Made by a program: the position numbers and the translations under genes | The notes under the pieces: model-generated | What the model saw: only the letters and a program-made list of their open reading frames with translations | Told to the model about the DNA's origin: nothing | Database searches by the model: none | Shown: positions 1 to 41,034 of the stretch, piece after piece | Numbering within the stretch: the stretch's first letter is position 1 | How the letters are laid out: each line of letters starts with the position of its first letter | IMG/VR virus record: IMGVR_UViG_3300048574_000396 | Location: 1-43,535 of that record | Source: a virus | Lineage: Duplodnaviria; Caudoviricetes | Length of the DNA stretch: 43,535 bases | Strand: one strand, 5' to 3'

Positions 1-306
1 TCACTCGCAAAACGCCTTGTTGAGCTCCTTGGGGAATTCCTCCAGCAGGGCTTTGTTTAAGAAGAAGCATGTCCATTGGCCGCGCTTTTCCCTGAGGATG
101 ACGCCAGCCTGTTCGAGCACCGCCAGGTGCTGGGAAACCGTGGATTGCGCCAGGCCTGTGGTGGTCACCACGTCCGCCACGCTGATGCCCTCCTCGAAGT
201 ACTGTATCTTGTCGCAGCAGGTGCCGATGGTCTGGTCCTTCATGGCCTTGACGATCTGGTACCGGGTCTCGTTGCCCAGGGCGTTGCAGATTTTCGAGAG
301 CTCCAT
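1..306 (-). CDS. ArsR/SmtB family transcriptional regulator (host gene flanking the insertion site)
   Basis: 101 aa; 'ALGNETRYQIV', 'SVADV...GLAQSTVSQHL..L..AG.I..EKRGQW' winged-HTH pattern; Cys pair CCDK; GGAGGGG RBS. Confidence 0.9.
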   Translation of the reverse strand: MELSKICNALGNETRYQIVKAMKDQTIGTCCDKIQYFEEGISVADVVTTTGLAQSTVSQHLAVLEQAGVILREKRGQWTCFFLNKALLEEFPKELNKAFCE

Positions 307-326
307 GAAATCCCCTCCCCGGACGC

Positions 327-379
327 ATCGTATTTTCCCGATACCACCGTCATTATATCGGATTTTTGCGATATGTCAA
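327..379 (-). promoter_or_regulatory. sigmaA promoter of the ArsR gene with two ATCG-N8-CGAT operators
   Basis: Minus strand TTGACA (374-379), 16 bp, TATAAT (352-357); inverted repeats ATCG-N8-CGAT at 357-372 and 327-342. Confidence 0.7.
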
Positions 380-422
380 TGGACTCCCGGGTAAATTTTG
401 ATGCGCTGTTGCTTTGGCAGTC

Positions 423-460
423 AGAAAGCCCCGAAATCCTTCGATTTCAGGGCTTTTCTT
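423..460 (-). terminator. Intrinsic terminator downstream of the original tRNA-Met 3' end
   Basis: AGAAAGCCCCGAAATC-CTTC-GATTTCAGGGCTTTTCT hairpin adjacent to the CCA end of the tRNA fragment. Confidence 0.8.
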
Positions 461-462
461 GA

Positions 463-508
463 TGGTAGCGGCGGTCGGATTCGAACCAACGACACTCCGC
501 GTATGAAC
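463..508 (-). repeat. tRNA-Met(CAT) 3'-half fragment; att core copy 1
   Basis: Reverse complement GTTCATACGCGGAGTGTCGTTGGTTCGAATCCGACCGCCGCTACCA: anticodon loop TTCATAC, T-loop TTCGAAT, CCA end; no 5' half; 45/46 identical to 2874-2919. Confidence 0.9.
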
Positions 509-802
509 ACGATTTTTTGGGGTTGTCAGGATTATTATTTCCTAATTTATAGGCGCTGAAAAAGGTTGGCATATTTGTACACAAACTGTGCAACGGCAAA
601 GCAAATACCATCATTTCAAATGAGGGCATTACAGCCTACAGCATGTGCAAAAGGTACGTAATAGCGGTGGCAATATGGGTGGATGGTAGGATTCCGCATT
701 CGTGTAAAAGCAGGGAACGTGAACTGAGCGGTGTGGGCTCTGCCAGTTGCAGCATGAATAGCACTTAGCAATAATCGGCTTCCGAATTAATCCTGCGTTC
801 GC

Positions 803-852
803 TTGCATTATGAGCAATTCGAGGTTATAATAATAAATAGAACAAATGTTCG
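803..852 (+). promoter_or_regulatory. sigmaA promoter with LexA (Cheo/SOS) box
   Basis: TTGCAT (803-808), 17 bp, TATAAT (826-831); AGAACAAATGTTCG at 839-852 fits the Firmicute GAAC-N4-GTTC consensus. Confidence 0.75.
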
Positions 853-1000
853 ATATTATTTGTGAGCGCTTGATTTTCTTGGGTATCAACGGGAGTAGAT
901 GGAAAGGATGGAATTTATTTTTTCTGATAGCGGCATGCAACAAAATGCCTTCATAAAGGGACTAAACGCTTCATAGCCTAGGGATAGAGGGGGTGTTTTC

Positions 1001-1156
1001 ATGGTTGTCAACCAAGAGGAAGCTTTACAGGAAGTCTTAAAAGCGATCATCACGATCACAAAGCGAACGGGGGATAGCGGGATCATTCAAGATGGCGCGG
1101 GTGAATTTTTGGCGGCTTGCTCAAAACTTGTGGATTCCTTTAACAACATGCACTGA
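1001..1156 (+). CDS. Small hypothetical protein (51 aa, not in the ORF track)
   Basis: MVVNQEEALQEVLKAIITITKRTGDSGIIQDGAGEFLAACSKLVDSFNNMH; GAGGGGG RBS 7 nt upstream; downstream of the SOS promoter. Confidence 0.55.
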   Translation: MVVNQEEALQEVLKAIITITKRTGDSGIIQDGAGEFLAACSKLVDSFNNMH

Positions 1157-1241
1157 CGAAGGAAAACCTCTGATCCCAGCCAAAGATTTAGAAGGTAAAA
1201 AATTCGGATACAGGGCCTAGGCTGTGGTGGTTCAAACGTGC

Positions 1242-1270
1242 TTTACATGAAAAGCGGCTTGTGCTAGAAT
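1242..1270 (+). promoter_or_regulatory. sigmaA promoter for the protease gene
   Basis: TTTACA, 17 bp, TAGAAT with extended TG. Confidence 0.6.
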
Positions 1271-1303
1271 GTCAATAACCAAAGGTTGGGAGGGGCGTGC
1301 CGG

Positions 1304-2299
1304 ATGAATTCTGCACAAAAGCTGCTGTATCAGGAAATCGAAAAGGCGCGTAACTCTAGGTTGCTTGTGTATGCCACTGGTGACCGGCAGGGTATGGAGA
1401 CTCAAATAGGGAACGATGCAACTGATTACTTTGCTGAGCATCTCGACGCAATAGGAATCGTTCATAAAATTACTCTGTTTCTATATACCTGTGGTGGTAA
1501 TACTTTGGCTGGTTGGAATATCGTTAACCTAATACGCCAATTCTGTGACGATTTCGAGGTCATTGTTCCTGTAAAGGCTCGAAGCACAGGTACATTAATG
1601 TGCTTGGGTGCTAATAGGATAATAATGACAAAGCAAGCAACCCTTGGGCCAATTGACCCAAGTATGAACACACCATTAAACCCGGTAGCGGCATCCAACG
1701 GGCAAGAGATTCGTGTACCAGTTAGTGTGGAAGCAATCAAAGGATTTCTTGAGCTCGCGCGGCACGAATTAAATGCTAACGAAGCGGCGCTGGCAAGCAT
1801 ATTTGAAGTTCTCGCACAAAATGTTCATCCATTGGTGCTTGGCGAAGCGTATCGTGCAACCGGTCAGATCAAAATGCTAGCTAAAAAGTTACTTGTCAAT
1901 CAGGTATCGGATGAAGATAAAATTGAGAAAATTGTCTCGTTCCTTTGTAGCGAGTCGGGAAGCCATGACTACACAATTAGCCGACGAGAAGCAAGGGACA
2001 ATCTAGGCTTAATTATTGAAAAACCTGATGAGGCGCTGTACGGTTTGATAAAGAAGGCATATGATGGGATAAGAGATGAATTGAATTTGCGTACACCTTA
2101 TAGCCCTGCGTTGTTGTTGGGGGCCCAAGGTTCTCGTCCATATTGTGAAAGGCGTGTCCTGCTCGAGAGCGTTGCTGGAGGTGTTGATGCATTTGTTTCA
2201 GAAGGAGTATTAACAAGAATACCACTTCCACAGAACCCGTCGGCTATCGCAATCAACGACCAGCGTACATTTGAAGGGTGGAAACATTATGATGAATAA
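1304..2299 (+). CDS. SDH-family (ClpP/crotonase-fold) serine protease
   Basis: Motifs 'LFLYTCGG', 'A.STGTLMCLGA..IIM...A.LGPIDP' (nucleophile Ser), 'SHDYTISRREA'; GGAGG RBS before ATG 1304. Confidence 0.85.
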   Translation: MNSAQKLLYQEIEKARNSRLLVYATGDRQGMETQIGNDATDYFAEHLDAIGIVHKITLFLYTCGGNTLAGWNIVNLIRQFCDDFEVIVPVKARSTGTLMCLGANRIIMTKQATLGPIDPSMNTPLNPVAASNGQEIRVPVSVEAIKGFLELARHELNANEAALASIFEVLAQNVHPLVLGEAYRATGQIKMLAKKLLVNQVSDEDKIEKIVSFLCSESGSHDYTISRREARDNLGLIIEKPDEALYGLIKKAYDGIRDELNLRTPYSPALLLGAQGSRPYCERRVLLESVAGGVDAFVSEGVLTRIPLPQNPSAIAINDQRTFEGWKHYDE

Positions 2300-2480
2300 G
2301 GAATCTATTCAGAATCTCGTGTATCTTCCAACATCTTCTGCTCTTGAGAAGCCTTCAGATGATAGCGACAATCCTCGTTCGTTGATTAGTTTAATGCGAG
2401 ACAAGACAGTCATTGCTGGTTACGAGCTAAATACACCGGTTGTGCAGACTCAAGTATACACCATTTGCATTACTCTATGA
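2289..2480 (+). CDS. Small hypothetical protein overlapping the protease stop
   Basis: ATGATG at 2289 overlaps the last codons of the protease; 63 aa. Confidence 0.5.
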   Translation: MMNKESIQNLVYLPTSSALEKPSDDSDNPRSLISLMRDKTVIAGYELNTPVVQTQVYTICITL

Positions 2481-2831
2481 TTCACTGTTCCGCACATATT
2501 CTGTTCTTTTTGTCACCCCAATCCTTACAGTCAAGAAATGGCTGTAGGGATTGTTTTTTACACTTGTGCCGCAAACACCACCGAACGCAAGGCGATTCTC
2601 ATCGAGGATTACGCGATGAACCTTGCCAGAAGGACACAGGCCGCTTATGTCCAAGAGGCATTTCCAATATATCTACCTTACGCGCATCGTCATGAAACGT
2701 GTTTGAGCTGATTAAACTAATAGGCACAAAATACTGAACAAACCGGATGTTTTGTGCAGAAGTTCTGCCCTGGAAACGATAATGAGACTTCCGGTTCAGT
2801 GATTTCTGCCAGAAAAAAGTGCGGTATATAC

Positions 2832-2872
2832 AGAAAAACAGTGCATCTTCTGATCCGAGATGCACTGTTTCT
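2832..2872 (-). terminator. Intrinsic terminator next to the second tRNA 3' fragment
   Basis: AGAAAAACAGTGCATCT-TCTGATCCG-AGATGCACTGTTTCT hairpin abutting the CCA end. Confidence 0.8.
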
Positions 2873-2873
2873 T

Positions 2874-2919
2874 TGGTAGCGGCGGTCGGATTCGAACCAA
2901 CGACACTCCGGGTATGAAC
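2874..2919 (-). repeat. tRNA-Met(CAT) 3'-half fragment; left att core of the prophage
   Basis: Reverse complement GTTCATACCCGGAGTGTCGTTGGTTCGAATCCGACCGCCGCTACCA; similarity to tRNA stops at the anticodon loop, typical of tyrosine-integrase sites. Confidence 0.9.
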
Positions 2920-3001
2920 TGAATTATATGCCTACCTCTGCCTGTAGAAACCCAGTAAATTAGGCATTTTCCCTACCATGCACGGGGATGCTCGAGAAAA
3001 G

Positions 3002-3022
3002 AAAGTTGCATAAAAGTTGCAC
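3002..3022 (+). repeat. Putative integrase arm-type sites
   Basis: AAAGTTGCAT-AAAAGTTGCAC tandem repeat (11-bp period) about 80 bp inside the att core; same motif at 43484-43505. Confidence 0.65.
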
Positions 3023-3156
3023 TTTGGGCAATGCTCTGTGTTTCTTTGTCAGCTACTAGTTTTGCGGCTGTTTGGGTTCCGGCCAACGGAGTCGAACATT
3101 ATTGCCCTGCCTTCTCTATAACAAGTTGTTCGACACACTCCTTACATCCTTTTCCA

Positions 3157-3783
3157 TTAAGATATTCGGATGTCGTCGAAAACTACGGGAATTCTTTGAT
3201 TCAACTCGTTAAATATTAGTTTCGCAATTTGTTGCATCTGAGGATGAGCGAAAGTTTGTGTTCTTAGTCTAAAAAAGTGTCGCCACTCCCTTAGGTTCAT
3301 TGTTACAATTATCTCGGTCTTTAAACTGTTAGGCAACACTGATCGTGCTTCTTGCGGCGATGAACCAGATTTCAATAAATCCATATACACTTTTTCGCAA
3401 TAACACATTGCGTCATGCCACATCGCAAATTTTGTATCATCACTTTCATAAAATAATGGCTTAATACAAGTTATTTCGCTTCCGTATTTGCTTTTTGAGT
3501 AATTGCAATACCGAGTGCTTTCTTGGCTATAACTAGCTATTCTGTGTCTCACAATTTCGTGTGAAACGCCTCTATCGCATATTACCCTTACTGTCACTTT
3601 TTCATGTTCAAGTACCGACTCGTGCCCGTTGTCAAGAATTTTACGAATAAATTCTTTCGACGAAGAGTCAGTAATCGCGCTTTCGCTCTTATAACATACC
3701 CGTCCATATCTTTCAATATTTCGAATAATTTGATCTCCATCAATGCAGTCTTCGATAACAACATATGGTTCAATCACTTTCAC
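3157..3783 (-). CDS. thyX: FAD-dependent thymidylate synthase ThyX
   Basis: Signature RHRIASYSQESTRY (RHR-x7-S), HESVLEH, 'EARSVLPNS..TE...TMNLREWRHFF.LR....AHPQM'. Confidence 0.95.
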   Translation of the reverse strand: MKVIEPYVVIEDCIDGDQIIRNIERYGRVCYKSESAITDSSSKEFIRKILDNGHESVLEHEKVTVRVICDRGVSHEIVRHRIASYSQESTRYCNYSKSKYGSEITCIKPLFYESDDTKFAMWHDAMCYCEKVYMDLLKSGSSPQEARSVLPNSLKTEIIVTMNLREWRHFFRLRTQTFAHPQMQQIAKLIFNELNQRIPVVFDDIRIS

Positions 3784-3787
3784 TTTA

Positions 3788-5503
3788 TTAATTTCCTTTC
3801 AAATGAAATTTATATACGCATGTTTCTGGGTCATTTTTACATATCTCAATGGTATACCCGCTTATGAGGAATTTAGATAGCACACCGATTTTTGACAAAG
3901 AGACTTCGAGGGTCTCCTCGCCGTTTCCAACATTCTCTCTATTAATGAGTCCGATTACCTTGTGAACAGATACTTTTGTATCGGATTTAATAGTATTACA
4001 TATATTCAGAATCGTCTCTCCAGTGTTGTTTGTGCCGACGATTAAAACAGGTTTTACAGATCTATCTTCGATGATTTTATCCTTGATTGTCTTTATAGAC
4101 TTTTCCCATTCCGTAAATCTGGTAGATTTATCTTCGGGTATAACGTAGGCGATAGGCTGATTTATTATAAAACCGATGTGAGATGATATAATAACTCCGC
4201 TATTCGCGATACCTATTAATAGATAATTATCACCTAATTCGTCGGGCAAACAATCAAAACTGTTTGAATAGAGATAGTTAATAAACGCCTGAGATATTCT
4301 ATCCAATAGCTTGTGGCTCGTTAATATACCGCTGCAGTCTAATTTGTTACGTGTTCTAATGCTGTTTTGGCGGCCTTTTGCGCTATGAAGAAGATAATGA
4401 CCCTCATAAAATAGACCATTAGACTCTATGTGCGCATGAATATCTTCAATAAGCGATAGTATGTTTATCGTTTTTGTCTTCTTATCTTTATCGGCGCTTC
4501 TTTCGACAATCTTGTCATACTGCGACTTAAAACTACGATTCTTCCATTCAATAACGATACTTTGATTGAATTGCACATGTTCCATCTCATTTATCGTCTT
4601 AGCAACATTCAGCAATTCACGGTTAAGTTTATCTACAACTTCTTTTAGCAGCTGCAGGTAATATGGCCGATTAGTAGCAATAAGTGCTTCATTTAACACT
4701 AATGTCACTGTTCCGACACCTATATTTACTGTTTCAACTAATTCGAGTTTATCCCAGTACTTCTTTGATATGTCGTCTGCCGGTTTGTTTGTAATACCAG
4801 TTATTCTACTGGATGAGCAATCGAGTTCATCTGCCCATCTCAAATATGCAGATAATTCCCTGAGCCGCATATTGCCATTACGGTCTTCTTTTTGTACGTC
4901 GGCATATAAGAACAAGTCTCTGTTTAATGTATCAAATGTTCTCTCGTTCTCTAGCTTAATATCGCTGTGTCCTAGAATTACCCAAGCTACAGCCTTTTGA
5001 ATTCTTTCATCTTTAACTACATATTTAAGTACTGTGGAAAGGTCGCTATGAACCTTCTTCAGTTCATCGTTGTATTTTGGTTTATCTGGTGTAACACCAT
5101 TCTCGTATAACTGATTTAAAACGTCTTGATCTATTGTATAAATATTGTCTTCAATGGTCGTGGCAGCATATTTGCTTACAATACCCGATCCATTCAATGA
5201 ATGAATAGGCCTGCCATAAGGATTATATGCCATATCGATGTCGTGAAGTAAACAAGCTAACTGAAATACATATAGTTCATCAACCGAATAATCAGATGCA
5301 CGCAATAGTTTGGATGCATTAATCAAAACTCCTTTAATATGATGTTCATAGTCATGTGGTGTGTATGCAATTGGTAAAAAGTACTGATCCTCAGTAAATA
5401 TATCCCTGATTCGATCGTGCGTTTTAATCCATCGATCATAAAGATCTGAGTCGTTTTTCTTAATTCTCTTGTTGATCTTAAGATTGTCGAACCATTCAGC
5501 CAC
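3788..5503 (-). CDS. HD-domain phosphohydrolase fused to a degenerate C-terminal type I PRTase domain
   Basis: N-term 'TPHDYEHH', 'CLLHDIDM', 'HS', 'GHS', 'LRWADELD' (HD metal ligands); C-term 'GHYLL', 'LIGIANSGVIISS', 'VLIVGTNNTGETI' resembling orotate PRTase; GTG start with AAGGAG RBS. Confidence 0.75.
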   Translation of the reverse strand: MAEWFDNLKINKRIKKNDSDLYDRWIKTHDRIRDIFTEDQYFLPIAYTPHDYEHHIKGVLINASKLLRASDYSVDELYVFQLACLLHDIDMAYNPYGRPIHSLNGSGIVSKYAATTIEDNIYTIDQDVLNQLYENGVTPDKPKYNDELKKVHSDLSTVLKYVVKDERIQKAVAWVILGHSDIKLENERTFDTLNRDLFLYADVQKEDRNGNMRLRELSAYLRWADELDCSSSRITGITNKPADDISKKYWDKLELVETVNIGVGTVTLVLNEALIATNRPYYLQLLKEVVDKLNRELLNVAKTINEMEHVQFNQSIVIEWKNRSFKSQYDKIVERSADKDKKTKTINILSLIEDIHAHIESNGLFYEGHYLLHSAKGRQNSIRTRNKLDCSGILTSHKLLDRISQAFINYLYSNSFDCLPDELGDNYLLIGIANSGVIISSHIGFIINQPIAYVIPEDKSTRFTEWEKSIKTIKDKIIEDRSVKPVLIVGTNNTGETILNICNTIKSDTKVSVHKVIGLINRENVGNGEETLEVSLSKIGVLSKFLISGYTIEICKNDPETCVYKFHLKGN

Positions 5504-5515
5504 AAATACCGCTCC

Positions 5516-6550
5516 TTACTTTACATAGCATTTATAGTAATTAGAAACATAATCATTGATGCCAAACAAAGTTAAAATCGGGCGTGACGTATTTGGTTTT
5601 TTGAACCGTGCAACCCCAACAGCACAAACTATCTTCGCGTTTTTAGTATCACACAGCATTTTTACCCGACTAAATTCAGTACCTATGCACATGAAGTCAA
5701 ATATATAGCAGTAGTTTCTTCCTCTGTGAATTTTATCGTTCATCTTTTCGTCCATTATGGAAATTGTCGGTCCAACGTTTTTTAGGAATATTACGGGTTT
5801 CCTAATAAGCGCAGAAATTGAACTCGCCAACACCGCTCCATTAACACTAGCACAGATAAATGCATCTATATTATTCAATTTTCTATTTATTGAGCTAATA
5901 ATTAGTTTTACCATCTCGAAAACAATTAAGTTCATAATGCTCGGATCGCTGACAACAGATTTAATGTCGACGTACCGATTTGCAGTAATGTTTGATGATA
6001 TTATTGCAACTTTGCTTCTGCTGCGCAATTGGTAATCGGGGCATACATTCTTAAATATATAATTCATTTTGGCGTAATCGATTCCAACACCATATTTGAG
6101 TGACTCGAAAAGCAGGCTACATCTTTCAAGGTTGCTAGAATTATCAGAGACTATGACACCATTACCATTGTCTACCAGTTTTGAAATGTGCGTTTTTGGG
6201 GTCTGACTAAGAATTAGTTTTGTAGCTTCCTTTGATTCATTCATGAAGTATATTGTCTTGGTCTTTAAAATTTCAAATACTATCTCTTCAAAAACATGTA
6301 CAGCAGAGTGTTGGATATCTCTTGCATCCCACACAATTATATCTTTTGTATTCGCAAACAGCCCTTTAGTAATTATTTCTACTTTTTCATCAATATACAC
6401 CGACTGGTCAATATTGACAAATATAGAGGCAAAACCTAAATAGTCTTCTTGTTGAATGCACGTTTGATTCCACAACATCAAATTGTTTTGATGAATGGAT
6501 ACGTAGGAATACTCAACATCCGTTGTAACGAAATTGTAAAAAAGCATCAT
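5516..6550 (-). CDS. PRTase-fold protein with a possible N-terminal STAS-like domain
   Basis: C-term 'RYVDIK', 'FICASVNGAVLASSIS', 'CYIFDFMCIGTE' (PRPP-loop position); N-term 'IIVWDARDIQH...IYFMN' STAS-like. Confidence 0.65.
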   Translation of the reverse strand: MMLFYNFVTTDVEYSYVSIHQNNLMLWNQTCIQQEDYLGFASIFVNIDQSVYIDEKVEIITKGLFANTKDIIVWDARDIQHSAVHVFEEIVFEILKTKTIYFMNESKEATKLILSQTPKTHISKLVDNGNGVIVSDNSSNLERCSLLFESLKYGVGIDYAKMNYIFKNVCPDYQLRSRSKVAIISSNITANRYVDIKSVVSDPSIMNLIVFEMVKLIISSINRKLNNIDAFICASVNGAVLASSISALIRKPVIFLKNVGPTISIMDEKMNDKIHRGRNYCYIFDFMCIGTEFSRVKMLCDTKNAKIVCAVGVARFKKPNTSRPILTLFGINDYVSNYYKCYVK

Positions 6551-6553
6551 TGA

Positions 6554-7642
6554 TTACCCCTCAATAATCACTTCAATATGTACACCGTCAAAGACGTTAT
6601 TACATATTTCGAATGTTCCGGTTTGATTCTCAATGATTCTAACGCGTGGATTTAGAATTAGTTTGCGAAGAGCTATCCTGTTAATGCGCAAACAACCATC
6701 ACTTTTATTTTCAATGTCCGGTTTTATATAGAACAGCTTGCAAACAGTAAACGTGTCAAGCCTCAAAATTGTATCGACAGAATGGATTAAAATGCTCCCG
6801 CCGTTTTTATACACCAATTCATATATGACATCCGAAAGCCCATACTTTTCTTTAGTATCTATCATCCAGAAACATAATGCTTCAATTATACCAGCTAAAT
6901 TTCGAAATGGAGTATTACCAATTTTAACGAATTCGTCCATAGTCAGTATGCGTGGTGCTGCTTTCGATTGCTTGTACTTAGATTTCATGCTGTTATAATA
7001 TCCTACACCCGAATCTGTATTCGAAAACGACAAACCCGACGATGAGTAGCATTGAAATGTATAGAATGAATCCGACATACCATGTTCAATTGAGTTTATT
7101 ATTATATTTGAATATGCCTCGATCAGTTTTTTCTTGTTAAGCGCATATCTATCCGAAAGCTTTTTCTTATCGAAAAGAGCATCCAACTTGTTTCGTACAT
7201 CCGAAAATACTCTGTCTTTCGAGGCGGCAATATCCTTAGATTCATTTATATTAAAAATAGAACGATTAATCTCTTTGATAGTTTCAATCTTTTCAATGTT
7301 GTAACTCTTTTTTAAATCCATTTTCGTGGAAAGATTATATGAGTTTAGGTTCGAACTGAACAACCTAAAGTGATCGGATAACATAAAAAAATCTGTTGAT
7401 ATTAGATAAGACACTACCGCACTTGACATTCCAAACAATAAATGAGGTACATTTCTGCCATTTTGATAAAATATATGGAAGTAACTTAACAAACTGCATG
7501 TCGCACCAGGCGTAATATGATTTGTCTCCTTAAAATCAATAATTAGCTTATCGTCATCCGATAGTAGATACTCGTAAAATTGAGGCAAGACAACACTATA
7601 TAAAAAATCAGTATCTAAAATTGCTGGCATGCAAATATGCAT
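6554..7642 (-). CDS. STAS-like domain plus GHKL (HATPase_c-like) ATPase/kinase
   Basis: 'LIIDFKETNHITP..T.SLL', 'VVSYL..TDFF' (STAS); N-box 'NIIINSIEHG', G1 'TDSGVG', G2 'YGLSDV', G3 'GVHIEV'. Confidence 0.7.
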   Translation of the reverse strand: MHICMPAILDTDFLYSVVLPQFYEYLLSDDDKLIIDFKETNHITPGATCSLLSYFHIFYQNGRNVPHLLFGMSSAVVSYLISTDFFMLSDHFRLFSSNLNSYNLSTKMDLKKSYNIEKIETIKEINRSIFNINESKDIAASKDRVFSDVRNKLDALFDKKKLSDRYALNKKKLIEAYSNIIINSIEHGMSDSFYTFQCYSSSGLSFSNTDSGVGYYNSMKSKYKQSKAAPRILTMDEFVKIGNTPFRNLAGIIEALCFWMIDTKEKYGLSDVIYELVYKNGGSILIHSVDTILRLDTFTVCKLFYIKPDIENKSDGCLRINRIALRKLILNPRVRIIENQTGTFEICNNVFDGVHIEVIIEG

Positions 7643-7691
7643 AGTTGTAGCCCTCTATACAGTATAACAAATAGAAAGAAAATGATAATAT

Positions 7692-7720
7692 ATAATAACA
7701 TAAAAATTAATAAAATGCAA
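7692..7720 (-). promoter_or_regulatory. sigmaA promoter for the four-gene thyX operon
   Basis: TTGCAT (7715-7720), 17 bp, TATTAT (7692-7697) with extended TG; AGAGGG RBS before ATG 7642. Confidence 0.65.
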
Positions 7721-8094
7721 ATCTCCTAAGGTTAAAATATTACGTTGATAAGTGCAAAATAAACAAAAAGGCTATACCATATTTAACGCGCTGATTAAAT
7801 GACACTATTGCATTTACGACCTTCAAGGATTGATATTGAAGACGGGGTAGGATCAATAAGGAACCCCCTGCCAGCCTATCGGCCAGAGGAAGTTTAGCGA
7901 TTACTACGAATAACTGGGATTGGGTGCAATTTTTGCTTTAATGAGTCTGTCGAGATCAACGTCGTAATCCTGCTCATCGTCAACATATACAGCATTACTG
8001 CTATCATTTCCTGCTTCTTCGTTGTCCATCATCGTGTTCTGGCAATTTATCGAGGACCTGCCGGATCAGCTGCCGGCGGTTCCCTCGTGTGTTC

Positions 8095-8310
8095 TCAAAG
8101 AATAACCCCTTCGTCGCCGCCGGGATGAAGCATCAGCAGCTTGCCGGTGGTCCTGAGCCGCGGCATCTCATTGGGGAACTGGTCACCCAGCGCCTCGATC
8201 CTGGCTACATCGTCGTCAATCAGTTTCTCGCCAAGCTTCCAAGCCGCCTGCTCATCGGCGCATTCCATTTCCTTAAGCACCTTTTTGAGCTTCGATTTCG
8301 GAATCGGCAA
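8095..8310 (-). CDS. Small hypothetical phage protein
   Basis: 71 aa; GGGAGGG RBS upstream; overlaps the 3' end of the MTase gene. Confidence 0.5.
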   Translation of the reverse strand: MPIPKSKLKKVLKEMECADEQAAWKLGEKLIDDDVARIEALGDQFPNEMPRLRTTGKLLMLHPGGDEGVIL

Positions 8311-9055
8311 AACAATCGTAATCCCTCCCTGCCTTTTCTAGCCGCTCCAAGGCGGCAGTGTAGTAGCTCCCGGATAACTCAATGCCCACCGCGTCATAGC
8401 CCTCCATCGCGGCCGCCAAGAGCGTCGTACCGCTGCCAGAGAATGGGTCCAGGATCACCCCACCGGGTTCACAGATCTGAACAATCTGGCGCATCAGGTC
8501 CAGTGGTTTCTGCGTCTGGTGTACTCGTTCCGGCCCGTGCTCCTGGGTATAGGTGAGCACGCCGGGCAGCACCCTCACGTTCCGGTCGACCGGCATGGGG
8601 CCGTTGCTGGCCCAGGCCACAAATTCTGCCTGTTGCCGGAAGCGGCCCTTTTGCGGACGGCTGGTGACCTTATCCCATACCGCTACACCCCGCCATGTCC
8701 ACCCCGCCCACTGGATTGCGTCGGTGAGGGCGGGCAGCTGCCGCCAGTCCGAGAAAACACATAGGGGAGCGCTCGGTATGCAGAGCGCACGGGCTTCACG
8801 GAGCCATTCTGACATCCATCGGGTCCAGCTGCGCTGGTCGAGACTGTCGCCTTCGAAATCAGGGTATGGGCAGCGTCCTTTGGTCGCCGTATATTTCCGT
8901 GCGGTACTTTGCTGTTTTCCTGTGAGACTACCGGCGCCACTGGAGTAGGGCGGGTCGGTGATGATTGCCGAGAAGGTATGGTGCATAGCCGGGAGCAACT
9001 TCAGGGCGTCACCGTTGAGAAGGTCAATTGAGTGGCTGTTGAGCGTAATAGTCAT
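8273..9055 (-). CDS. Orphan DNA amino-methyltransferase (N6A/N4C, beta class)
   Basis: 'ITDPPY' catalytic motif before 'HQTQKP' and 'ILDPFSGSGTT' SAM motif; GGAGG RBS before ATG 9055. Confidence 0.9.
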   Translation of the reverse strand: MTITLNSHSIDLLNGDALKLLPAMHHTFSAIITDPPYSSGAGSLTGKQQSTARKYTATKGRCPYPDFEGDSLDQRSWTRWMSEWLREARALCIPSAPLCVFSDWRQLPALTDAIQWAGWTWRGVAVWDKVTSRPQKGRFRQQAEFVAWASNGPMPVDRNVRVLPGVLTYTQEHGPERVHQTQKPLDLMRQIVQICEPGGVILDPFSGSGTTLLAAAMEGYDAVGIELSGSYYTAALERLEKAGRDYDCFADSEIEAQKGA

Positions 9056-9072
9056 GCTTGCCTCCGAAAAAT

Positions 9073-9117
9073 AGAACATGTGTTCTAATTATACCTCGTG
9101 CAAGGACAGTGAGGCAA
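9073..9117 (-). promoter_or_regulatory. Promoter with LexA box upstream of the MTase
   Basis: TTGCCT (9112-9117), 18 bp, TATAAT (9088-9093); AGAACATGTGTTCT at 9073-9086. Confidence 0.7.
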
Positions 9118-9131
9118 GCGAACGGGGGATT

Positions 9132-9160
9132 AAAAAACCGGCCAGCTTTGAGCTGGCCGG
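9132..9160 (-). terminator. Intrinsic terminator after the two-gene moron
   Basis: CCGGCCAGC-TTTGA-GCTGGCCGG stem; the adjacent A-run gives a U-tract on the minus strand. Confidence 0.75.
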
Positions 9161-9169
9161 CGGGTTTAT

Positions 9170-9679
9170 CTACTCGTCAAGACGATATTCACCTTGTGGA
9201 GCTTTCGGTTTCTTGCTAACGACAGGAGCAGGCGGTGTGTCTAGGGAAGCGGTTATTCGAAGGAGATAGTAGCCAGCTCCTATTGTGCTGATAGTATATG
9301 CGACAAGCAATCCCGCTCCATATGATAGGACCCAACCTTTTAGTAGGCCGGTTGTATCGACTGTTATTCCGGCGCATATGCAGAATATTATTAAAACCGC
9401 TCCGAGTATCAAGGATTCTGTATATCGGCACCTTAGTTCAGCCATTCCACCATCTTGTCGAATCTTTCGCATAATGGGACTTCCGCTAAGGCCCACTAGA
9501 ATCGAAACAGAAGTAAGAATGAATCCTGAAAATGTAGTCGCACAAACGATAATAGCATTTAGAACAAATTCAATGCGGCTCACATTGCACGAAGGATTGA
9601 AGTGAGATACAACGTAGTAAGCCGCTATCCCGAAGAAAACGGGAAGAGCGACCACAAATATAATCCATGGCCGTTTCAT
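9170..9679 (-). CDS. Multi-pass membrane protein (about 4 TM), second gene of an AT-rich moron
   Basis: Four hydrophobic segments; 23 bp downstream of 9703-10581. Confidence 0.75.
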   Translation of the reverse strand: MKRPWIIFVVALPVFFGIAAYYVVSHFNPSCNVSRIEFVLNAIIVCATTFSGFILTSVSILVGLSGSPIMRKIRQDGGMAELRCRYTESLILGAVLIIFCICAGITVDTTGLLKGWVLSYGAGLLVAYTISTIGAGYYLLRITASLDTPPAPVVSKKPKAPQGEYRLDE

Positions 9680-9702
9680 ATGGATCAGCGCCCCTTCGCG
9701 AA

Positions 9703-10581
9703 TTATCGATGATAGTCTTCGCAGAACTTCTCTTTTAGGGAAATAAACAATCTTTTGTGAGTAATTGGATTCTGCCGTGAGTACTCCATTTCAAACGTGT
9801 ATGATTCTATGTCGTCTAATAGGTCGATAGTATGTATTTCAACGTCTTCATTATCTGCCATACGGACCTCTAGTTTTTGTGCGCCTGCAGCGTATGCTTC
9901 TTTGATAAGCTCAGAGGCTTCATCAGCGTTAAGATAACCAGATTTCCTTCCAAAACCAATAGATATAGTTACGCTGCTTCCTTGGTATCTGTTAAAGACA
10001 CGCAGGATTCTTGAGAGGCGAGATTGGTTCTCAGAAGAATCCGAAAAATCTGGTTCGCACGTAAACACTACTTTTCTATATTTCTTTGTTGGTGTCATCT
10101 GGCCGATCCTACTCTTCGGGGCAATGGGCTTTAGTAGTATGCTGGTTTCTGCTGGGAGTAAATCTCCGATGTAAGTTCCTAGAGAGCTGAGCGAAATACC
10201 AAAAATGTTGCGCTGAACATAAAGTCTACAAGTAAATTCATCATACAGAGCTGTGATTGTCTCGGCAGGATACTTTCCTTCCTCTAGCTCAATAAGCTCA
10301 TATTCACCCTCTTCTGTGGCTATCCCGGGAAGCATCTTCTCCCTCAGCCTCAGAATTTGAAGCTCCCAGATTCGCTCTTTTTTATGTAATCGGCAAATGT
10401 GGAATCTATATTTATCTCCTCTGATCTCCTTTACAGTTCTAGAAACCGACGACGCCTCAATGGATGTAAAGAGATGGCTTAGGTCACAGGGAGTTTCATG
10501 CTGAACGGAATCTTCGTCTTTTTCGAGATAAAATGGGCGCATTTGGTCGAAACGCACATTTTTCTTGCTAACCACGCACAA
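9703..10581 (-). CDS. DUF6731-like soluble protein (moron)
   Basis: 'LRLRE..LPG....G....I.L......E....LYD.....L.VQRN' pattern recalled for this family; AT-rich; own promoter. Confidence 0.55.
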   Translation of the reverse strand: MCVVSKKNVRFDQMRPFYLEKDEDSVQHETPCDLSHLFTSIEASSVSRTVKEIRGDKYRFHICRLHKKERIWELQILRLREKMLPGIATEEGEYELIELEEGKYPAETITALYDEFTCRLYVQRNIFGISLSSLGTYIGDLLPAETSILLKPIAPKSRIGQMTPTKKYRKVVFTCEPDFSDSSENQSRLSRILRVFNRYQGSSVTISIGFGRKSGYLNADEASELIKEAYAAGAQKLEVRMADNEDVEIHTIDLLDDIESYTFEMEYSRQNPITHKRLFISLKEKFCEDYHR

Positions 10582-32007: not shown

Positions 32008-33621
32008 TCAAGCTGCTTTTTCAACACACTCCGGCAGGTTCGCACGGACCAGCGCCGCCGCCACCGGCGGGCATACGGAATTCCCCACCCGGGCCACCTG
32101 CGCCTTTTTCGGGTACGGCTTGCCGCTGGCGTCCCTGTCAATGACATACTCCTCCGGGAATCCTTGTGCCCGGAAAAGCTCTCGCGGCTCCAGCATGCGC
32201 AGGCCGATGTCCACGATGGCGTACTGCTGCCCGTGAATTGTGACCAGTGCGAACCGGTCGTTTGCCGTCACCGTGTCAAGCGGCGCGCCTATTTCCTGCC
32301 CGGTACCCTGCCCGTAATACTTGATCAGGAACGCGCGTACTTCGCCGTAGTGCGTCCCGCCCGCCGTCACGGTCGGCATGGGCCGATTCAGATCCTGACC
32401 GTACTCCTCGCCGCGGAGCTTGACCAGATGGGCGGCGACTGGCGAATTGTGGTCCCGCGCCGTGACGGTGCCCAGCGGTTCCTCCGGGCGGCTGCCGTTA
32501 TTGATGAAGCCGTCGCCGAAATACTTGCTAACGAACGCCGAAACCAACGCGAACTTGTTGCCCTGGGCGACGATGGTCCCGACTGGCGCTTCGATGTCCA
32601 GCACGCGCGGCTGTTGCCCGGGCGCTTCGCCGTATCCCATTTGAATCAGCGTGGGCGTGACGAGGCAGTGCTCCGCCTTTGATACGATGGTGGTCAGCGG
32701 GTCTTCCGGCGAATACTGCCGCCTGTCACCCGCGAAGCCGTTCTGCCCAATGGCCGTGATGACCGGCGTCACTACGCTGAAGCGCGTCGCTCCAGCCATT
32801 ACCGTGTCCAGCGGCTTTCCGGTCGACTGCCCAATGCTGTTCTGCTGGAACTTCACGATGAACGGCTCTGGGTTCTCCACGACGTATTTCATGATCCCGC
32901 GCGCGATCCGGCGCAGGGTGGCCTCCGCCAGTGGTTTTTTCCGCTCGAAGATGGATGGGCACGGCAGCGACCAATCGATGCACTCCGCTGCCGTGCGCCA
33001 GGGTTTCAGCATGCCCGCCTGCACCTGCAGGCTGTTCGGCGCGCCGTGCGTTGGTTCCGGCCAGACGATGGGCCGACCGTCACGCCGAGCGATCAGATAG
33101 AAACGTGTCCGACTCGTCGGCGCGCCGTAGTCACACGCCGCCAGCTGCCGGTATTCCACGTGATAGCCCAGCGCCTCCAGCTGTTCCTTCCACCGCTCAA
33201 ACGTCCGCCCAACGAACCGCTTCACGGGCCTGCCTTTGCGGACGGGTCCCCAAGTGACGAACTCGGGGACATTTTCGAGGATGATCACCCTCGGCTTCGC
33301 AAGTGCCGCCCATTTCAAGGCAACCCATGCCAGGCCCCGGATGGTCTTGTTGACCGGCGTCGCGCCCTTCGCCCGGCTAAAATGCTTGCAGTCCGGGCTG
33401 AACCAGCAAAGCGCCACGGGCTTTCCGCCCGTCGCCTCGCGCGGATCCACCGTCCAGATGTCCTCGCAGTAGTGCTTCGCGCCCGGATGATTGGCAACAT
33501 GCATGGCAATGGCTTCCGGGTCATGGTTGATGGCGATGTCCACCGACCGGCCGAGCGCCAGTTCAATGCCGGTAGATGCACCACCGCCGCCGGCGAAGCT
33601 GTCAACGATCAATTCCATCAT
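32008..33621 (-). CDS. DNA (cytosine-5) methyltransferase with an expanded variable region
   Basis: 'DSFAGGGG', 'SPDCKHFS', 'ENV.EF', 'R.RFY', 'RAQGFP', 'GNSVCP'. Confidence 0.93.
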   Translation of the reverse strand: MMELIVDSFAGGGGASTGIELALGRSVDIAINHDPEAIAMHVANHPGAKHYCEDIWTVDPREATGGKPVALCWFSPDCKHFSRAKGATPVNKTIRGLAWVALKWAALAKPRVIILENVPEFVTWGPVRKGRPVKRFVGRTFERWKEQLEALGYHVEYRQLAACDYGAPTSRTRFYLIARRDGRPIVWPEPTHGAPNSLQVQAGMLKPWRTAAECIDWSLPCPSIFERKKPLAEATLRRIARGIMKYVVENPEPFIVKFQQNSIGQSTGKPLDTVMAGATRFSVVTPVITAIGQNGFAGDRRQYSPEDPLTTIVSKAEHCLVTPTLIQMGYGEAPGQQPRVLDIEAPVGTIVAQGNKFALVSAFVSKYFGDGFINNGSRPEEPLGTVTARDHNSPVAAHLVKLRGEEYGQDLNRPMPTVTAGGTHYGEVRAFLIKYYGQGTGQEIGAPLDTVTANDRFALVTIHGQQYAIVDIGLRMLEPRELFRAQGFPEEYVIDRDASGKPYPKKAQVARVGNSVCPPVAAALVRANLPECVEKAA

Positions 33622-33671
33622 GCCTTTTCTCTCCTGTGTCTTTATGCCGCACAAACACCAGCGCGTCGGGC

Positions 33672-37674: not shown

Positions 37675-37735
37675 CCATTAGGATGTATTCCGCCAGTTGA
37701 CAAGTATTAAGCCCGCAGGTGCTGAGGAGCTACAG

Positions 37736-39487
37736 ATGAGCATAGATGTAGAAGAAGTATCAGTATGCTACCTTAAACTTGAGTTAATGAAAAGCGAGTA
37801 TTTATCGGCTTATATAAATTCGAAGGATAAAGAGCCATCGTATGATGGTCACATCATTATTCATCAGGATAAAACTAGATCAAAAGAAGCAATAAAACGC
37901 GTCTTTGTCCAAGTTAAAGGAAAATCTGAAGAAGATTTTTCAAAGGAGTCCATTTCTTATCCCATTGAAATATCCGATCTCAAAAATTACCTCAATAACG
38001 GTGGGGTTTTCCTGATTGTTGGCTATGTTCGCAAGAATCTTCCAAGCTTTCCTATAGCGAAACTGTATTATGCTTCGTTAACTCCAATTACGCTGAAATT
38101 GTATCTTGAAGAAGCTAAAGGATCCGGGACAAAATCTATAACCCTACATGAGCTTTTGCTAGGCAGTGTAGAATTAACCACGAAGCTACTTAATTTTTAT
38201 AATGATTGTTCAAAACAAACTAGTTTTGCCTCGAAAAAGCTCTTCAATATTGAAGAGCTCGAGGCGACAAATATGATCGAGTGCTTAAAGCTGACAGTCC
38301 TTGCATCAGATGAGGATACTAGGAGTTTTGAAGAGCTCGTTCTAGAAAATGAACCCAATATCTATGCTGTGACGAAAGCTGGAGATGAATTACCAATTGC
38401 CATGGTTCCTGATTCCGTTTGTACAGTTAGGTTAATCCCGATAGATGTATGCGCCAATGGCATCAAATTCTACTCCGAGGTGCTTTTAGAGCGTGGCAAA
38501 TACAGAATTACCACAAGAATCGGAGACAACATAGAACTGATACAAGAAAAGTCCGTGCAAAAACCCGGTCTGAAATATAAAACAAGCGAGTATATTTGCA
38601 AGAAAATTATTGATCTTTCATTTCTTTATAATGCCATGGTTTCAGGTGGGTTCTATCTGGGAAATAGTTTTGTTGGCATGAAGTCAAACGAAAATGGATA
38701 TAATTCAAAAAACATACAGATATCAATTGGATTTTATGAAGATCTATATAATGCGTTTAAAATGCTTAGTGTACATGATGACGTCAAAATAAGCAATATA
38801 TCAAGGCTTGAGTATACTTACTCTAAAATTTTAATCGATGCATTCGTTAAGAATGTGCCTGTTCGATCAATGGGCGATGTTCCTGTGGTGGCAAAAATAG
38901 ATTTGTATGGATTGTGTTTTATGCTTGTATTTATTCAAAATGAAGACAAGACGCATAATGTGTACGATTTTTTTAAAACAAAGTTTAATGCTTATGAAGA
39001 TTCAGCGCTGATGCGGCCGGTATCGCAATACTCAATCTTGACACAAGAAGATTATTCTGTTATATCGAATATTAATTATGAAGTTATTGTCTCGTCGTTT
39101 ATTGATATGGGGTATTACGATAATGCTTTGTTTTCACTTCTGCGGATGATATTAGGCTATGATCTTTCTGGGAAAACAGAGACATTAAATGCGGCTAAGA
39201 AACTTGCCGAATGGTTGCTGTATGATCCTGGCACCACGATAGATAATGAGATAGCTATGTTGAATTATTCACAAATTATTAAGCGTGAGCGGGAGTTTAC
39301 TGATGAAGAATTTCTGAAATTGCAGTCAATAGCAGAAGATAAAAGAATGCGTGACGATATTCGTGTTGGGGCGTACCTGTTGTTGGGATCCCAAAGACCT
39401 GCTGAGCTTCTGTTCTCGAAAATGAGTCCTGACGAGCAGGAAGCATTCCGTCAGTATCCGATATACAGATTTTGGGAGTCACAGTAG
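37736..39487 (+). CDS. DUF4365-like PD-(D/E)xK domain protein (AT-rich accessory gene)
   Basis: N-term 'DKEPSYDGHI...RVFVQVKG', 'YPIEISDLKNY...GG'; GAGGAG RBS before ATG 37736. Confidence 0.7.
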   Translation: MSIDVEEVSVCYLKLELMKSEYLSAYINSKDKEPSYDGHIIIHQDKTRSKEAIKRVFVQVKGKSEEDFSKESISYPIEISDLKNYLNNGGVFLIVGYVRKNLPSFPIAKLYYASLTPITLKLYLEEAKGSGTKSITLHELLLGSVELTTKLLNFYNDCSKQTSFASKKLFNIEELEATNMIECLKLTVLASDEDTRSFEELVLENEPNIYAVTKAGDELPIAMVPDSVCTVRLIPIDVCANGIKFYSEVLLERGKYRITTRIGDNIELIQEKSVQKPGLKYKTSEYICKKIIDLSFLYNAMVSGGFYLGNSFVGMKSNENGYNSKNIQISIGFYEDLYNAFKMLSVHDDVKISNISRLEYTYSKILIDAFVKNVPVRSMGDVPVVAKIDLYGLCFMLVFIQNEDKTHNVYDFFKTKFNAYEDSALMRPVSQYSILTQEDYSVISNINYEVIVSSFIDMGYYDNALFSLLRMILGYDLSGKTETLNAAKKLAEWLLYDPGTTIDNEIAMLNYSQIIKREREFTDEEFLKLQSIAEDKRMRDDIRVGAYLLLGSQRPAELLFSKMSPDEQEAFRQYPIYRFWESQ

Positions 39488-39525
39488 GTTCTACATGACA
39501 TTGATAAAGAAAAGGTGGGCAGAGT

Positions 39526-41034
39526 ATGGCAAAGTGCAGACGTTGCGGCGATAACGGTCTTTTTCTCAAGGTGAATCAGGCGGGCTTCTGTGCGAAGTGC
39601 GAAAAGATTGCCAAGCACGAAGGTGAGATTGATCGTCTGAAGCGAGAAGCAGCCGAAGCCTCCAGCCGCGCCGCAGACGCTGTAAAGCTGCTTGCCCAGG
39701 CGGAAGAGGCGGCCAAGACACAGGCACTTCGCAATCTGGAAGTCTTGGAACGCCGCCTTTCTTCGGAAATCGCTCAAAAGACAGAGATGTTGACTGATCT
39801 GAGCGCCGCGGTTGCCGGGGCCTCTGCGGAGCTTGAGGCGGTTGAGAAGAAGGCGAGAACGGCCGAGAACCGCGTGAGCAAGGTGACGGCACTCTTCAAA
39901 TCCATGAGCTACGCGATAGACCACTTCATGTCGCCGGAGTCTGAATATCGGGATCTCAAGCCTGTCTTTGACGCCTGTGACTTTTCTTCCATTGCACCCG
40001 TCCAGCTCAATTGCATGACCATGAAGGCGCTGCGCGCCCGGTACCGCCAGAATGAGCAGCGAGTGCGTGAAGTTTTCGTCTCATATGAAAAACGCTACAC
40101 CACGAAGGCCAACGCCGCCATCTACAAGCTCATGGTGTTGGCCCTTGAGGCCGAGCTTCAGAACATCCTGCACACCATCAATTACGGGAAGCTGGAAACG
40201 GCACAGGAAGCTGTGAAGGCGCTCATCGAGCGGTACTATGCTATAGCGACCGATGGGAATCAGAACATCGCGCCGACGCTTCGCCGGTTCATCGGCCAGA
40301 TCGAGGAGCTGTATTTGGAAGCCGTCGCCATCGAGTACGAGTATTATGTGCAACGTGAGCGCGCCCGGGAAGAGCAGCGTGCCATCAAAGAGCAGATGCG
40401 CCAGGAAGCCGAGGAACGCAAGAAGCTGGAACAGGAACGCAAGCAGATCGAAAACGAGGAGAAGAAATACCGAACGGAAATGGAGCGCATCGCCGCTCAG
40501 CTTGCTCAGACCCCACCGGAAGACGAAAGCGCGGCACAGGTCCTGAACGCACGCTTGCAAGAGATTCAAGAGCAGCTTGATTCCGTCGAGGGAAAGAAGG
40601 CAGAGATCATCAACCTCCAGAACGGTAAGGCCGGGACTGTGTACATCATCAGCAACATCGGTTCATTTGGCGATCACGTCTTCAAAATCGGCATGACCCG
40701 ACGCCTGGAACCCCAGGAGCGCATCAACGAGCTTGGCGACGCAAGTGTGCCTTTCCCGTTCGATGTACACAGCTTCATTTTCTCCAATGACGCCGTGTCG
40801 CTTGAGTGTGCCCTGCACAAGGAGATGAACGAGCGCAGGGTCAACAAGGTCAACCTTCGTAAGGAGTTCTTCAACGTCTCCGTGGCGGAATTGCAGGCAC
40901 TTGTAGAGCGCCTGGATCCTACGGCGCCCTTCCAGATGACCGCCCTCGCCGAGCAGTACTATCAGAGCCTTTCGATCACAGACGTACCCGACGAGTGCGC
41001 AGTTGTAATCGACGAGGAGGACGAAGCCAGCTAA
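39526..41034 (+). CDS. DUF4041 coiled-coil plus T5orf172/MUG113 GIY-YIG domain protein
   Basis: N-term CxxC...CxxC; 'GTVYIISNIGSFG..VFKIGMTRRLEP.ER..ELGDASVPF.FDVH', 'RKEFF'. Confidence 0.88.
   Translation: MAKCRRCGDNGLFLKVNQAGFCAKCEKIAKHEGEIDRLKREAAEASSRAADAVKLLAQAEEAAKTQALRNLEVLERRLSSEIAQKTEMLTDLSAAVAGASAELEAVEKKARTAENRVSKVTALFKSMSYAIDHFMSPESEYRDLKPVFDACDFSSIAPVQLNCMTMKALRARYRQNEQRVREVFVSYEKRYTTKANAAIYKLMVLALEAELQNILHTINYGKLETAQEAVKALIERYYAIATDGNQNIAPTLRRFIGQIEELYLEAVAIEYEYYVQRERAREEQRAIKEQMRQEAEERKKLEQERKQIENEEKKYRTEMERIAAQLAQTPPEDESAAQVLNARLQEIQEQLDSVEGKKAEIINLQNGKAGTVYIISNIGSFGDHVFKIGMTRRLEPQERINELGDASVPFPFDVHSFIFSNDAVSLECALHKEMNERRVNKVNLRKEFFNVSVAELQALVERLDPTAPFQMTALAEQYYQSLSITDVPDECAVVIDEEDEAS

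Follow-up and report, generated by a model that had tools for sequence, protein, structure and literature searches.

The window analyzed here is a stretch of 43,535 nucleotides from a virus of the class Caudoviricetes (IMG/VR record IMGVR_UViG_3300048574_000396, positions 1 to 43,535). At one end of the prophage that it represents, the window carries an operon of four genes, labeled G1 to G4 in the direction of transcription and referred to below as the cassette. The operon is real and is conserved in its order across at least 14 lineages other than the window. Judged from sequence, it probably serves anti-phage defense of one kind or another. The features of the operon and of the adjoining prophage end are as follows (AF2, AlphaFold2; PRTase, phosphoribosyltransferase; OPRT, orotate PRTase).

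6554–7642, minus strand: G1, 362 amino acids; STAS domain (residues ~1–100) fused to a GHKL domain of the anti-sigma-kinase type (~121–362), assigned by AF2 fold
5516–6550, minus strand: G2, 344 amino acids; probable STAS-like N-terminal part and OPRT-like type I PRTase (157–342)
3788–5503, minus strand: G3, 571 amino acids; HD-CE domain (46–263) and C-terminal OPRT/PyrR-like PRTase; predicted effector
3157–3783, minus strand: G4, 208 amino acids; ThyX, a flavin-dependent thymidylate synthase of a kind often seen in phages; optional gene of the operon
7661–7688, minus strand: candidate sigma-70-type promoter with an extended −10 element; number of such sites not above chance
2874–2919, minus strand: attachment-site (att)-like 46-bp repeat, second copy at 463–508; readable as a tRNA(CAT) 3′ half
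3012–3022, plus strand: integrase-arm-like 11-base motif, repeated at 43484–43505 beside the integrase; presumed role

Conservation and genomic setting of the operon

Pattern scans of genomes, viruses and metagenomes, which were not exhaustive, revealed at least 27 loci collapsing to at least 14 lineages besides the window (L001/L006; L002; L003; L004; L005/L026/L027; L007; L008; L009–L017; L018; L019; L020; L021; L022/L023/L025; L024). Gene order is kept in these lineages at only about 15–35% identity, the median pairwise identity across lineages being 24% for G1, 24% for G2 and 31% for G3. G2 lies upstream of G3 in all 13 lineages with upstream sequence (as a fragment ~850 nt away in L001/L006), G1 precedes G2 in all 11 lineages that have room for it, and thyX follows G3 in 11 of 13. 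The genes are tightly packed, with intergenic gaps of −26 to +35 nt in the nine loci measured. Among the hosts with names are Thermincola, two further Bacillota and a Caldisericota genome. No full-length match was found in 398 and 400 other sampled genomes, indicating a rare and patchy distribution. Weak matches in 12 Clostridia genomes, from a set of 401 of which 2 were left unscored, covered the GHKL core only and were rejected as ordinary kinases or anti-sigma factors (L114 and L117 were examined). A search of the whole library gave 36 relatives of G1, and larger unnamed families resembling G1 and G2 are present in the Atlas among Bacteroidota, Pseudomonadota and Actinomycetota. No G1 was found in phage records. 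Fourteen viral loci with a related lysin are only 39–45% identical, and all are without the cassette.

The initial annotation, made from the letters of the window, had described a tightly spaced operon with overlapping ribosome-binding sites, an AT-rich composition, its own promoter and a position next to att. Most of this description proved accurate. The four genes are co-oriented on the minus strand, and the gaps of 3, 12 and 4 bp are exact according to the open reading frame (ORF) coordinates. Purine-rich stretches resembling ribosome-binding sites are located inside the last codons or the stop of each preceding gene. The GC content of the operon is 35.2%, compared with 61.3% in the phage backbone between 11 and 36.5 kb. 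The promoter is the exception: the extended −10 sequence TG-T-TATACT is indeed present at 7661–7669, but a scan gave 19 promoter-like sites versus 21.5 ± 4.6 in shuffled sequences, no more than expected by chance. The operon ends about 240 bp inside the att-like end of the prophage. From its letters we take the 46-bp repeat to be a tRNA 3′ half, the anticodon being CAT; ARAGORN called no whole tRNA there. The 11-base motif at 3012 recurs at 43484 and 43495, adjoining the integrase, and is matched five times against 1.05 expected by chance (none of 100 shuffles reached five). The repeat and the integrase-adjacent copies of the motif therefore place the operon inside the prophage end. Other prophage genes include those for terminase, portal, tape measure, holin, lysin and integrase. 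Within positions 1–9200 of the window there are no Rfam matches. Below thyX, the sequence has no stronger folding than its shuffles (z −0.49), and no terminator was called.

A mobile, defense-island context had also been proposed, and the relatives bear it out. Our scan covered 58 proteins that flank the cassette at 12 loci (55 hand-picked from 99, most housekeeping-looking ones being omitted, and 3 more). Known defense or restriction–modification (RM) genes occur within about 6.5 kb of the cassette in 5 of the 12 neighborhoods. In L020, Avs2 and NsnB/NsnC stand directly upstream, ending 157 bp away. The L018 cassette has an EcoRI-type methylase nearby, and that of L003 shares the cargo of a Tn7-like element with an FRG gene (PDC-S15). 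An OLD-like ATPase-TOPRIM gene is close to the cassette of L005, which resides in a provirus, whereas L004 features an RM-type protein, UvrD, PD-(D/E)XK and an integrase. In 11 of 12 loci the GC content of the operon is below that of its flanks.

Domains of the encoded proteins

The domain assignments of the initial annotation hold for all four genes by folds or profiles, save for the STAS part of G2, where the signal is weak. The N-terminal region of G3 matches the HD-CE family (PF24391) with 61.5 bits against a cut-off of 27, and an HD-CE match is obtained for all 15 G3 rows at E ≤ 0.01. The HD site is intact as claimed, H55, H87, D88, H101, H179 and D225 being present in every one of the 15 rows. 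The two extra histidines are a usual feature of HD enzymes with two metals, not of dGTPases. The analogy with dGTPases drawn previously is not supported, as G3 belongs to Pfam HD-CE and no dGTPase model was matched at E ≤ 0.1 in Pfam, PADLOC or NCBIfam. Nicastro et al. reportedly predicted in 2023 that the HD-CE family targets nucleotides in immune systems. G3 is predicted to be a nucleotide-hydrolyzing effector.

The PRTase domains of G3 and G2 are related to each other, their profiles being aligned by hhalign with a probability of 86% (E 4.7e-6). In type I PRTase enzymes, the loop that binds phosphoribosyl pyrophosphate (PRPP) is marked by two acidic residues, which bind the ribose hydroxyls. 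The loop of G3 retains one Asp in 2 of 14 full rows and no acidic residue in the other 12, while Thr-Gly is kept in all 14. Loss of the acidic residues with retention of Thr-Gly would fit a deoxynucleotide ligand, the most speculative step of our interpretation. For G2, fold comparison (VIA) placed the C-terminal domain close to adenine PRTase (APRT; Z 16.1, rmsd 3.3, 159 residues aligned; rmsd, root-mean-square deviation) and OPRT (Z 15.8, rmsd 3.4, 179 aligned), and Foldseek retrieved PurR and OPRT at E ~1e-8. Profile matches of G2 to pyrE are weak, and a sequence-only search of the PDB gave nothing useful. In the G2 loop the second Asp is present in 13 of 13 sequences and the first acidic residue in two of 13. 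Models of the pyrE/OPRT type were the best match for the PRTase domains of four of five G2 and five of five G3 proteins tested, and the four other genomic matches of the G2 profile all fall inside pyr operons. Since the domains are closest to pyrimidine enzymes and their PRPP loops are degenerate, both are likely to bind nucleotides as sensors. Their preference for pyrimidines is a lean, not a result; it draws on the pyrE/PyrR best matches (9 of 10 proteins), the pyr-operon matches and the linkage to thyX. The fold list of G2 was filled by PRTases, with no fold match reported for its N-terminal part, which hhalign relates weakly to STAS domains (0.4% to an RsbV-like protein, 11.7% to the STAS domain of G1).

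G1 has no match in Pfam, NCBIfam or PADLOC, none by Foldseek under E 0.001, and only one weak kinase in a sequence-only PDB search. In its AF2 model (predicted template modeling score 0.79), residues 1–100 adopt a STAS fold according to VIA (RsbS, Z 10.1, rmsd 2.0, 91 aligned; RsbV, Z 9.8), and residues 121–362 a GHKL Bergerat fold (SpoIIAB, Z 8.9, rmsd 2.8, 127 aligned), with Z of 8.9–9.1 to SpoIIAB, UsfX and Rv1364c over 111–127 aligned residues. With hhalign the GHKL domain reaches 92.8% to an RsbW-like ORF of L114. Residues of the ATP site are nearly invariant in 43 aligned G1 sequences (N183, G212 and G214 in all 43; D210 in 42). The position four residues ahead of the N-box Asn is Glu in 33 of 43 and Asn in the G1 of the window. 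The STAS phospho-acceptor Ser motif has a role in partner switches. The acceptor Ser of the RsbV-like protein of L114 aligns to P45 of G1, a position occupied by Pro in 39 of 43 sequences; in G2, two of 13 sequences carry Ser at the corresponding position (ungapped count). A distant relative of G1 occurs in three Cytobacillus plasmids with MarR, ThiF and DarTG-like neighbors and no G2 or G3 (in L122:6908–14361 with MarR, ThiF, DUF6527 and DarT/macro genes). STAS-GHKL proteins of this kind may thus serve other systems too.

G4 is a ThyX according to both PF02511 (E 4.9e-51) and TIGR02170 (137 bits versus a cut-off of 87.9). It is intact, and the RHRx7S motif occurs in all 12 operon copies of ThyX. 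The initial annotation saw a four-gene unit with a dedicated thymidylate synthase. Gene order is indeed conserved; however, the core consists of three genes, since thyX is missing in 2 of 13 lineages. These two (L008 and L024) are placed apart in the G3 tree, each on a supported branch with thyX-bearing systems around it, so that their lack of thyX would most simply represent two losses. The idea of a dedicated ThyX clade has to be abandoned. Approximately unbiased (AU) tests reject monophyly of operon ThyX (p 7e-10, 12 versus 29 rows), also under a mixture model with two long housekeeping rows dropped (p 2.5e-9, 12 versus 27), and G1–G3 are not seen at 79 of the 80 viral loci that have a close ThyX (two of the 79 have <1 kb upstream). 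The 86-row ThyX tree is a quick tree only. The ThyX proteins of L018 and L020 nest among phage ThyX (support 100/99) and share 91% identity with the ThyX encoded by viral contig L033, which is set among phage-like genes. By this evidence ThyX is exchanged between the operon and phages, and either direction fits. Host genomes encode a second thyX in three cases of four and a full thyA in one of four, so that the operon copy is extra. ThyX of the cassette is thus an extra, ordinary and replaceable enzyme, and we infer that what counts is the activity of ThyX more than any co-evolved interface.

Several G3 copies end early. In the L009 lineage (L009–L017, human-gut contigs with the cassette lodged midway in a locus for polysaccharide biosynthesis), a run of 10 A in the linker between the HD and PRTase domains has 8, 9 or 11 A in six of nine near-identical copies, and these changes cut G3 after the HD domain. 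G3 of L003 ends at a 10-A run at the same domain junction. The two runs (L009:11066–11075 and L003:10917–10926) are the longest in their operons and belong to two distant lineages; the window is without such a run. The length variation could possibly reflect phase variation, slippage or assembly error. Copies L012 and L015–L017 contain many homopolymer indels, resembling sequencing error, and L014 differs from L009 only in the A-run. If the breaks are real, a lone HD domain is tolerated, which favors activation by the PRTase domain over release.

Proposed mechanism and its alternatives

Under the mechanism that we put forward, a phage would shift the pyrimidine nucleotides of the cell, and the two predicted non-catalytic OPRT/PyrR-like PRTase domains of G2 and G3 would sense the shift. 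The two domains are proposed to pair to form the sensor, because type I PRTases are dimers. The sensor would switch on the HD domain of G3, and the resulting hydrolysis of nucleotides would stall the infection, the substrate being a nucleotide and most likely a deoxypyrimidine one. G1 would set the threshold by ATP/ADP-dependent contacts between its STAS and GHKL domains rather than by Ser phosphorylation. ThyX would act as an ordinary enzyme converting deoxyuridine monophosphate (dUMP) to thymidine monophosphate (dTMP) and thereby keeping the sensed pool at rest as long as the cell is uninfected. Any active ThyX should therefore do, making it a replaceable threshold-setter of the operon. Taken together, the activation of HD-CE by paired pseudo-PRTase sensors of pyrimidine nucleotides, with an ATP-dependent threshold in G1 and the resting dUMP/dTMP level held by ThyX, is a tentative model to which we give somewhat less than an even chance. 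Its boldest form is unlikely: a new immune logic, in which a phage-type thymidylate synthase has been repeatedly captured to fix the dUMP/dTMP set-point, departures are read by a dead orotate-PRTase pair, and the HD effector is gated by a non-phosphorylating STAS-GHKL ATP switch.

A number of observations weigh against the model. Seven of the 12 neighborhoods contain no recognized defense system, although several of these seven have little flanking sequence, and the count of 5 of 12 stands without a baseline from random islands. The cassette of L002 is among housekeeping genes and that of L012 in a polysaccharide locus; the seven further include L023, located after guaA within an integrase/MobA element, and L006, which has an insertion sequence alongside. 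None of the four window genes matches any PADLOC 2.0 profile, and among the relatives only 2 of 43 G1 and 1 of 16 G2/G3 proteins give weak partial matches to unrelated models. The PRTase domain of G3 is recognized from profiles only, with E 5.6e-4 against PyrR and values as low as 2.4e-7 against pyrE among relatives. Matches to pyrE are weak (E from 1e-4 to 1e-7), and by fold APRT and PurR score equally well. L018 and L020 alone (2 of 13) keep the acidic pair in the G2 loop, so that some G2 proteins may be catalytic. Finally, thyX is absent from L008 and L024.

Four other explanations deserve consideration. The first reading of the window envisaged a switch of the SpoIIAA/SpoIIAB kind, in which G1 would phosphorylate a STAS Ser and thereby release the HD effector. 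G1 does combine a STAS domain with a SpoIIAB/RsbW-type fold and has invariant ATP-site residues, but we consider the switch very unlikely because the acceptor Ser is absent. In addition, neither a sigma factor nor a PP2C gene was found in the cassette at any locus read or in the 58 flanking proteins, and the G3 copies cut after the HD domain in six of nine copies of one gut lineage fit, if the breaks are real, an activating rather than a restraining PRTase. Together with the dedicated ThyX clade and the dGTPase analogy, this switch is the part of the first reading that was not supported; the domains, operon, context, HD site and absence of a match to any named system were. A different role for ThyX, attack instead of buffering, is implied if the target is phages with uracil or hydroxymethyluracil DNA: ThyX would drain dUMP to dTMP, and HD would remove modified deoxypyrimidine nucleotides. 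ThyX is intact in 12 of 12 copies and extra to that of the host, and DS-4 joins a thymidylate synthase with a 5-hydroxymethyldeoxyuridine (5-hmdU) kinase domain (PMC13092281, Table S8). Nevertheless, thyX is missing in two separate branches, profile scans found no domain for reading modified bases in G1–G4, and this explanation seems rather unlikely.

The cassette might instead have no part in defense and adjust the pyrimidine or thymidylate supply under metabolic stress, for example in the presence of antifolates or nucleotide analogs. Three of the four genes are related to pyrimidine or PRPP metabolism, and L002 and L012 are located away from defense genes. We regard this as improbable in view of the degenerate PRPP loops, fast divergence, low GC content, patchy spread and the HD-CE identity of G3, as well as the cassettes that abut Avs2/Menshen and RM genes. 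An addiction or toxin–antitoxin module that stabilizes a mobile element, with G3 as the toxin and G1/G2 and ThyX as antidotes, would be compatible with defense. It could explain the carriage of the cassette by mobile elements, which comprise a prophage, a Tn7-like element, integrative elements and a provirus, and ShosTA offers an example of a PRTase-bearing toxin (PMC11961720). On the other hand, G2 has no match in 72,556 plasmid records, and HD-only truncations persist in metagenomes. Such a module has little probability in our estimate.

Other prophage cargo and relation to known systems

The prophage holds further genes that look like cargo. An islet at 509–2873, between the two tRNA-end repeats, encodes a serine protease of the SDH/Clp fold (1304–2299, PF01972) followed by a small overlapping ORF, and may be a second cargo or defense unit integrated in tandem. 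Between the holin and a methylase lies an AT-richer gene pair (9170–10581) coding for a DUF6731 protein and a membrane protein with a weak match to RexB (E 6.8e-6), another candidate defense pair. Genes for a DUF4365 protein (596 amino acids, 37% GC) and a T5orf172/MUG113 protein occupy 37697–41034, between the repressor and the integrase, and are likely to be more cargo. The prophage has two DNA methyltransferase genes, at 8273–9079 and 32008–33654. Among the relatives, the Tn7-like cargo of L003 contains, besides the cassette, a gene pair for a Beta protein and an sce7726-family protein (L003:5319–7230).

In the literature searched we found no published description of the gene set, which two papers of the Aravind group (Nicastro 2023, doi 10.1093/nar/gkad879; Burroughs and Aravind 2020) or their supplements may nevertheless list. 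The cassette is likewise not described in the available parts of PMC7824862, PMC9503650 and the PUA-Cal-HAD preprint (10.64898/2026.01.15.699771). The operon is thus apparently undescribed, while nucleotide-targeting defense as such is already known. Only for a few systems, such as Clover and PUA-Cal-HAD, is it known what keeps nucleotide-depleting effectors inactive and which phage trigger sets them off. The cassette, being wired differently, is a compact test case and comes with natural controls: copies that have or lack thyX, and one copy whose ThyX shares 91% identity with a phage ThyX. If the model is true, it would provide a testable substrate for HD-CE domains, present PRTase folds as immune sensors and place ThyX, generally regarded as a phage auxiliary gene, on the side of the host. 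The cassette also carries defense discovery into anaerobic Bacillota and further hosts that are poorly sampled.

Comparison with known systems brings out both shared parts and a different assembly. The N-terminal domain of G3 belongs to the same HD-CE family as known conflict effectors (15 of 15 rows), but in the cassette it is joined to an OPRT-like PRTase and encoded after the STAS-GHKL and STAS-like-PRTase genes. Both folds of SpoIIAA/SpoIIAB and RsbV/RsbW are found in G1, joined in one chain, yet the cassette has no acceptor Ser, sigma factor or phosphatase. PyrR and PurR, in which the PRTase fold is used for sensing, are the top matches of the G3 C-terminal domain and of G2, respectively. 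Those proteins regulate transcription of biosynthetic operons, whereas in the cassette the PRTase fold is fused to a hydrolase or to a STAS-like domain. ShosTA also fuses a type I PRTase to a hydrolase in an anti-phage protein (PMC11961720); however, ShosT has a Rossmann-fold pyrophosphatase, binds PRPP and disturbs purine metabolism, and ShosTA has no HD, STAS, GHKL or ThyX. Two validated systems of DefensePredictor share single components with the cassette (PMC13092281). DS-4 includes a thymidylate synthase, but of the ThyA type and accompanied by a deoxynucleoside monophosphate kinase, a 5-hmdU kinase, TIR/NDT and NMAD. DS-32 contains a PRTase, in this case with NADAR in another gene set. 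By analogy, the cassette would work most like Clover (CloA/CloB; PMC12265719). There, an effector of the HD superfamily is gated by a thymidine nucleotide, thymidine triphosphate (dTTP), and restrained by a partner enzyme. Unlike the cassette, Clover has a dGTPase (CloA) and a Pol-beta nucleotidyltransferase partner; the cassette has no such partner and no match to a dGTPase, and sensing is assigned to its PRTase folds.

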